Notes under the pieces: model-generated
Seen by the model: only the letters and a program-made list of their open reading frames with translations
Database searches by the model: none
Told to the model about the DNA's origin: nothing
DNA from: Escherichia coli
Lineage (GTDB): Bacteria > Pseudomonadota > Gammaproteobacteria > Enterobacterales > Enterobacteriaceae
Reading direction: 5' to 3' (one strand)
NCBI RefSeq assembly: GCF_030013595.1
Contig: NZ_CP122768.1
DNA: 64,000 nt
Shown: one piece after another, positions 29,828 to 29,922 of the stretch
How the letters are laid out: the number at the start of each line of letters is the position of its first letter
Position numbering within the stretch: position 1 is the stretch's first letter
Made by a program: the position numbers and the translations under genes

Positions 29828-29836
29828 TCTTACATA

Positions 29837-29875
29837 GCTGGATATGGCGTCAGCCGTATCCAGCGATATCTTTTA
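29837..29875 (+). terminator. Hairpin immediately after relA stop (candidate terminator)
   Basis: gctggata...tatccagc inverted repeat followed by a short T-run. Confidence 0.35.
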
Positions 29876-29922
29876 CTCGAAGGTATTACACCTGACAGAC
29901 CCGCAATTTTCAGGACATTCTA

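Follow-up and report, generated by a model that had tools for sequence, protein, structure and literature searches.

The mazEF-free relA-mazG spacer of an Escherichia coli strain is probably a widespread, already described ancestral-type allele of a toxin-antitoxin integration site

The window, a 64-kb stretch of Escherichia coli DNA that was analyzed as a whole, carries relA and mazG as direct neighbors on the plus strand. The relA gene (27593-29827) encodes a GTP diphosphokinase of 744 aa that matches NCBIfam model NF008124 over its full length (1672.7 bits) and ends with the stop codon TAG at 29825-29827. It is followed by mazG (29923-30714), which encodes a nucleoside triphosphate pyrophosphohydrolase of 263 aa (TIGR00444, 419 bits; NF007113, 370 bits). 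The neighbors of the locus, i.e., barA, rlmD, and pyrG, are in the E. coli arrangement according to NCBIfam matches. The 95-bp spacer between the two genes (29828-29922, plus strand), for which the open reading frame list gives the same boundaries as a preliminary description of this DNA, is the mazEF-free, unoccupied form of the site. The relA stop and the mazG start lie on the same strand, about 95 bp apart, and are contiguous as in other genomes with this form.

The first ~53 bp of the spacer (29828-29880) are specific to the empty allele and have no counterpart in K-12, as delimited by alignment and by the break-points of megablast and blastn matches. This segment contains, on the plus strand, a degenerate REP-type palindrome at 29837-29864 with the arms GCTGGATATGGC and GCCGTATCCAGC and the loop GTCA, which was recognized by folding, by a terminator scan, and by alignment to REP sequences. 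A T-rich tail, GATATCTTTT, at 29865-29874 lies 3′ of the hairpin stem and, in a consensus scan, gives it a weak look of an intrinsic terminator. The remaining, mazG-proximal part of the spacer (29881-29922) is a leader common to empty and mazEF-positive alleles, 37 nt of which are 94.6% identical to K-12; direct reading places a Shine-Dalgarno-like AGGA at 29912-29915, 7 nt upstream of the mazG ATG. Only two open reading frames touch the spacer, one at 29733-29837 (34 aa) that lies almost entirely within relA and one at 29844-29996 (50 aa). The latter has neither an NCBIfam match nor a Shine-Dalgarno sequence and was treated as mechanical rather than as a gene. A crude scan for sigma-70-like promoters found none in 29400-30400.

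The preliminary description held that the spacer contains a hairpin and lacks mazE and mazF, which K-12 has at this position, and both statements proved correct. The relA-mazG gap of K-12 is 731 bp long and holds mazE (249 bp) and mazF (336 bp). Neither K-12 protein has a match in the 64-kb window, spacer included (tblastn, best E = 0.95), and the window contains no adjacent pair of MazE (PF04014) and MazF/PemK (PF02452) genes, as would be expected of a mazEF type II toxin-antitoxin module. The only blastn match of the K-12 intergenic DNA in the window is a stretch of 37 nt at 29881-29917, just upstream of mazG. Alignment, megablast, and blastn agree that homology to K-12 ends at the relA stop codon and starts again at 29881. 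The window and the relA-mazE-mazF-mazG operon of K-12 are thus alike in the 3′ end of relA up to its stop and in the ~42 nt that precede the mazG ATG, while a cassette of ~690 bp in K-12, comprising mazE with its promoter, mazF, and ~30 bp directly 3′ of mazF, stands where the window has the 53-bp REP-containing segment (29828-29880). The mazEF promoters, which drive mazG in K-12, are therefore absent from the window allele. A weak resemblance of ~29871-29888 to the K-12 segment 3′ of mazF (roughly 67%, by eye) was not relied on. The flanks themselves are closely related, with 97.4% identity to K-12-type genomes over a 1095-bp junction region from the relA 3′ end to the mazG 5′ end. As the 53 bp at 29828-29880 are unknown to K-12, the spacer could not have been obtained by excising mazEF from a K-12-type allele.

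The hairpin is the sole strong one in the spacer and consists of a 12-bp stem with seven G-C pairs and a 4-nt loop. Its stem begins 9 nt downstream of the relA stop, at 29837. A 106-nt region around it folds at -34.3 kcal/mol as compared to a shuffle mean of -20.0 kcal/mol (z = -4.55), and none of 200 shuffles was as good. Like the REP and BIME elements of Enterobacteriaceae, it is an imperfect palindrome of ~28 nt directly 3′ of a stop codon, forms a stable stem-loop, and is intergenic. It differs from a typical REP in that GCTGGATATGGC replaces GCCGGATAAGGC and the loop is shortened to 4 nt, and it is a single unit, whereas a BIME is a pair. We take the REP consensus to be GCCGGATAAGGCG...GCCGCATCCGGC, and 11 of 13 bases of the left arm match GCCGGATAAGGCG. 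A strict two-arm REP pattern with three mismatches allowed and a 6-nt loop does not match, as the arms hold four mismatches in total and the loop has 4 nt. The similarity to the consensus and to outgroup elements described below is nevertheless evident, though degenerate. The left arm has a few further matches in the 64-kb window, at 9362, 45795, 52298, 19016, and 7876.

In Escherichia, six distinct haplotypes of the empty spacer were compared, and each keeps all 12 stem pairs. The most divergent of these, L004, shows one double change from U-A to C-G, and three pairs shift between Watson-Crick and wobble. This one double change is the only covariation, which 86 of 500 shuffles equal; as judged from these alignments, statistical support for selection on the hairpin structure appears weak. 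The hairpin passes a lenient terminator consensus scan, yet its T-run TCTTTT is short and begins 4 nt past the stem, and the intervening GATA makes terminator activity uncertain.

The identity of the hairpin becomes apparent in comparison with outgroups. In Citrobacter and Klebsiella, the relA stop is followed at a distance of 7-8 nt by a canonical REP unit, TAGGCCGGATAAGGCG...CCATCCGGC. Offset and orientation are the same in the hairpin of the window and the outgroup REPs, and local alignments between them score 13-16, with none of 2000 shuffles reaching 13; the best REP match of the hairpin is a REP of E. albertii (score 18). The 3′ flanks are similar as well, with GATATC in the window and AATATC, GATTTC, or AATTTC in the outgroups. 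This agreement in alignment, offset, orientation, and 3′ flank suggests that the hairpin is a degenerate REP that was inherited in place. Such positional orthology is a strong argument, not proof, because REPs can also spread secondarily, as exemplified by those of E. albertii that lie inside a deletion scar.

For a wider view of the site, we scanned species-representative genomes with MazG, which yielded 80 Enterobacterales loci, none of them from E. fergusonii, E. marmotae, or E. ruysiae. The gaps between relA and mazG are mostly 43-143 bp long, and none of the 80 loci has MazE or MazF between the two genes. In the E. albertii type strain (NBRC 107761, L006, 2240-2500), the 261-bp gap has ~34 nt of the mazE promoter palindrome at its relA end and ~70 nt from the segment 3′ of mazF at its mazG end, and REP/BIME sequence between these cassette ends replaces the coding region. 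Judged by its sequence, this gap is a true mazEF deletion scar, which indicates that the mazEF allele is old or was passed between species. The E. albertii locus and the window are alike in that neither encodes MazE or MazF and both contain REP sequence, but the two ends of the mazEF cassette are preserved in E. albertii and absent from the window. The marks of a deletion scar, i.e., remnants of the mazE promoter and of mazF or its downstream region, are lacking in the window spacer, where only the 37-nt mazG-proximal leader matches K-12. In this respect, the view in the preliminary description that the junction is clean, without an IS element or a scar, holds, as no remnant of the cassette was found.

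Other cargo occupies the same intergenic position elsewhere, while the window carries none. Superficieibacter sp. (L019, 1566-2500) has parDE in the relA-mazG site (Pfam ParD, 1.2e-18; ParE, 1.3e-11), and Buttiauxella agrestis (L043, 713-2497) has Hcp, a DUF4225 protein, and a 109-aa membrane ORF, which are probably a T6SS effector/immunity cassette. In Salmonella, parDE was reported at the relA-mazG site (PMC7167474). On the basis of these gene contents, we interpret the relA-mazG gap as a recurrent integration site, i.e., a hotspot. A membrane ORF of 112 aa in the relA-mazG site of a further locus (L017, 1551-2500) resembles by eye the one of B. agrestis. Gaps of 336-418 bp without a convincing ORF were seen in Pectobacterium (L063, L065, L066), Brenneria (L067, L070), and Samsonia (L074); they far exceed the gaps of Enterobacteriaceae in length and may contain repeats or an RNA.

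The frequency of the empty allele was assessed in 5426 complete E. coli genomes, a set to which the window strain itself does not belong. The 1095-bp query spanning the junction matched 5425 of them. A contiguous, empty relA-mazG junction, defined as at least 80% of a 195-bp junction query covered in one piece (elsewhere the query splits in two), was present in 1006 genomes (18.5%), and ~200 complete genomes share the 195-bp junction of the window at 99% identity or more. Seven aligned empty junctions have a mean column identity of 97%. DNA of K-12 mazEF was detected in 4419 of the 5426 genomes, always on the chromosome and never on a plasmid, with a median of one copy. Empty and mazEF-positive genomes add up to 5425, which is the number of genomes having the relA-mazG region; the two states are thus complementary, which makes relocation of mazEF unlikely. 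An assembly error, which the preliminary description had named as the circumstance that could overturn the absence of mazEF, is excluded because the identical contiguous junction recurs in 1006 complete genomes.

Public assemblies that share one identical RelA protein likewise showed only two architectures, empty or mazEF, and the identical RelA protein WP_000226815.1 is annotated beside both. A seeming third architecture, in which only the relA end matched (H68-H70), was traced to genomes of the usual mazEF-positive kind whose mazF-mazG spacer varies slightly. Over the 1095-bp junction region, empty-site genomes are 96.3-100% identical to the window, and some mazEF-positive genomes reach 98.2%. 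The best 25-kb matches of the window have 98.8-99.0% identity, and both states are present at about 98%. Strain 83972 has the empty site, while UTI89, IHE3034, and E2348/69 carry mazEF; in UTI89, mazE and mazF are located between relA and mazG (RefSeq NC_007946.1, 3064350-3068108; L090, 14351-18109).

Taken together, we consider it very probable (roughly 0.88) that the spacer is a common, known, ancestral-type unoccupied allele of a toxin-antitoxin integration hotspot. The argument rests on the REP, whose inheritance in place would make the empty site the ancestral type, and on the absence of mazEF from this site in 80 other species, the population counts, and the lack of cassette remnants. 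K-12-type strains would then have arisen by the exchange of the ~53-bp REP segment for a cassette of ~0.69 kb that comprises the mazE promoter/operator, mazE, mazF, and a short 3′ tail. Toxin-antitoxin cassettes are described to move as a promoter and ORFs without a terminator, and mazG of K-12 is cotranscribed with mazEF (PMC5120126). As a cassette of this kind brings promoters and no terminator of its own, its arrival would have put mazG under the mazEF promoters, which would account for the cotranscription in K-12. In the empty allele, relA, the REP palindrome, the short T-rich tail, and the mazG ribosome-binding site would form a simple two-gene unit, in which relA and mazG may be cotranscribed and transcription reading through from relA would supply mazG. 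Of the two origins proposed in the preliminary description, the ancestral empty site is hence favored by the REP matches to outgroups, and the precise deletion is contradicted by the 53 bp that are absent from K-12.

The most serious alternative concerns the history of the lineage rather than the nature of the allele. The ancestor of the window strain could have carried mazEF, and homologous recombination across relA and mazG could have imported the empty allele from another E. coli, so that the site would be ancestral in sequence and secondarily empty in this lineage. The presence of mazEF is independent of flank similarity in both the 1095-bp and the 25-kb comparisons, and the same RelA protein, WP_000226815.1, stands beside both states. 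Strains of phylogroup B2 differ in state, with 83972 being empty and UTI89, IHE3034, and E2348/69 being mazEF-positive. The scar of E. albertii, moreover, shows that the insertion is old or has crossed species, and the window lineage may therefore have carried mazEF before recombination restored the empty allele. We regard such allelic replacement as less likely than not, and it does not conflict with the identification of the allele itself as the ancestral type.

It is very improbable that a K-12-type allele in the window's lineage lost mazEF by a precise or REP-mediated deletion. In favor of this reading, neither an IS element nor an obvious scar is seen at the junction, and REPs occupy the former place of mazEF in E. 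albertii. Excision from K-12 cannot generate the 53 bp at 29828-29880, however, and the REP has the offset, orientation, and 3′ flank of those in Citrobacter and Klebsiella, which are without mazEF at this site. The sole real deletion found, that of E. albertii, left both cassette ends in place, and these are missing from the window.

A mazEF copy elsewhere in the window strain, either relocated or on a plasmid, is likewise very improbable. The inspected sequence covers 64 kb of the genome, and 142 plasmids, mostly conjugative ones, carry distant mazEF relatives (65-69% DNA identity). The search for relocated copies that the preliminary description advised was negative at the population level (1006 + 4419 = 5425 of 5426 genomes): all K-12-type copies are chromosomal with a median of one, the counts are complementary, and the window itself has no match. 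The plasmid-borne relatives fit a mobile origin of mazEF and name no donor. A plasmid donor of the K-12 cassette was sought and rejected, as there were only the 65-69% relatives and a single 99% match to a 4.8-Mb record. That record, NZ_OL790696.1 of PLSDB (H151), is filed as a plasmid, is 99.4% identical to the chromosomal mazEF region, and is evidently a mislabeled chromosome. Finally, the strong and conserved fold could hint at a dedicated regulatory RNA (an sRNA or a riboswitch-like mazG leader) in place of a REP remnant, which is equally improbable given that no Rfam family matches 29600-30100 at E <= 1, that the sequence is REP-like and placed where outgroups have canonical REPs, and that mazEF-positive strains manage without the hairpin.

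With the spacer read as an ancestral-type empty allele, some functional roles can tentatively be assigned to its hairpin from sequence features, with somewhat less than even confidence. The hairpin might stabilize the 3′ end of relA mRNA or partially terminate the transcript. Translation of RelA may be dampened as well, because the REP stem, 9 nt after the stop codon, falls within 15 nt of it: ribosomes are reported to stall at REPs less than 16 nt from a stop codon, with tmRNA tagging and a reduced yield of the protein encoded upstream (PMC12306157, citing Liang, Rudd & Deutscher 2015). It is tempting to go further and to speculate that the alleles confer different RelA and MazG dosage and hence a different set-point of the stringent response in about one fifth of E. 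coli as compared to K-12-type strains, since the REP is within the reported stalling range and mazG lacks the mazEF promoters. As both alleles are old, judging by the ancestral REP allele and the E. albertii scar, the polymorphism could then have been maintained over a long time and would not be neutral. We consider this proposal improbable as it stands.

The mazEF-free relA-mazG allele is already known. Many mazEF-less strains have relA-mazG as an undisturbed bicistronic operon, into which the toxin-antitoxin module was inserted independently of the function of the flanking genes (Fraikin, Goormaghtigh & Van Melderen 2020, J Bacteriol, PMC7167474). The window matches this described allele, with relA and mazG forming an adjacent bicistron without a toxin-antitoxin module, and nothing substantive differs. 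The same article refers to an uneven distribution of mazEF (citing Pandey & Gerdes 2005 and Fiedoruk et al. 2015) and names UTI89 as an example of strains without these systems; Norton & Mulvey 2012 does not address how mazEF is distributed. The present analysis adds the recognition of the hairpin as a REP with orthologs at the same position, the frequency of the empty state in 5426 genomes, and the true mazEF scar in the E. albertii type strain, and it corrects PMC7167474 in that UTI89 carries mazEF. It further suggests that the empty site keeps the ancestral REP hairpin, which would make mazEF a replacement-type insertion and not the default state.

The window strain presumably has no chromosomal MazF of the K-12 type. 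Other toxins of the MazF family, such as ChpBK or PemK, may still be encoded outside the window, which would not amount to relocation of mazEF. Stress, persistence, and RNA-phage-defense phenotypes that depend on MazF in K-12 should hence not be assumed for this strain, nor for ~18% of E. coli. The preliminary description overstated the significance of the absence, given that 18.5% of complete E. coli genomes share the empty state and that it was already reported in PMC7167474; beyond strain bookkeeping, it matters little.

A few further features of the window deserve mention. Between cysH and iap (53086-54977), a Hok/Gef-like small ORF (53351-53503, plus strand) after cysH is followed by an IS4-family transposase ORF of 426 aa (53532-54812, minus strand; NF033592, 1.6e-38) and then by iap and cysDNC. 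In ETEC4077, the closest complete genome, cas3 comes directly after the hok gene. Because the window has the transposase ORF and then iap at this point, the type I-E cas operon and the adjacent CRISPR array appear to be missing between cysH and iap. Another CRISPR array, with the type I-E repeat GAGTTCCCCGCGCCAGCGGGGATAAACCG, a period of 61, and about 6-7 repeats, is located between queE and ygcE (36323-36716) and looks like an orphan, as the window is without cas genes. The gene ygcG, which encodes a TPM-domain protein on the minus strand, is apparently split into two ORFs (34025-34450 and 34484-34942), in agreement with its annotation as an 'internal stop' pseudogene in ETEC4077.
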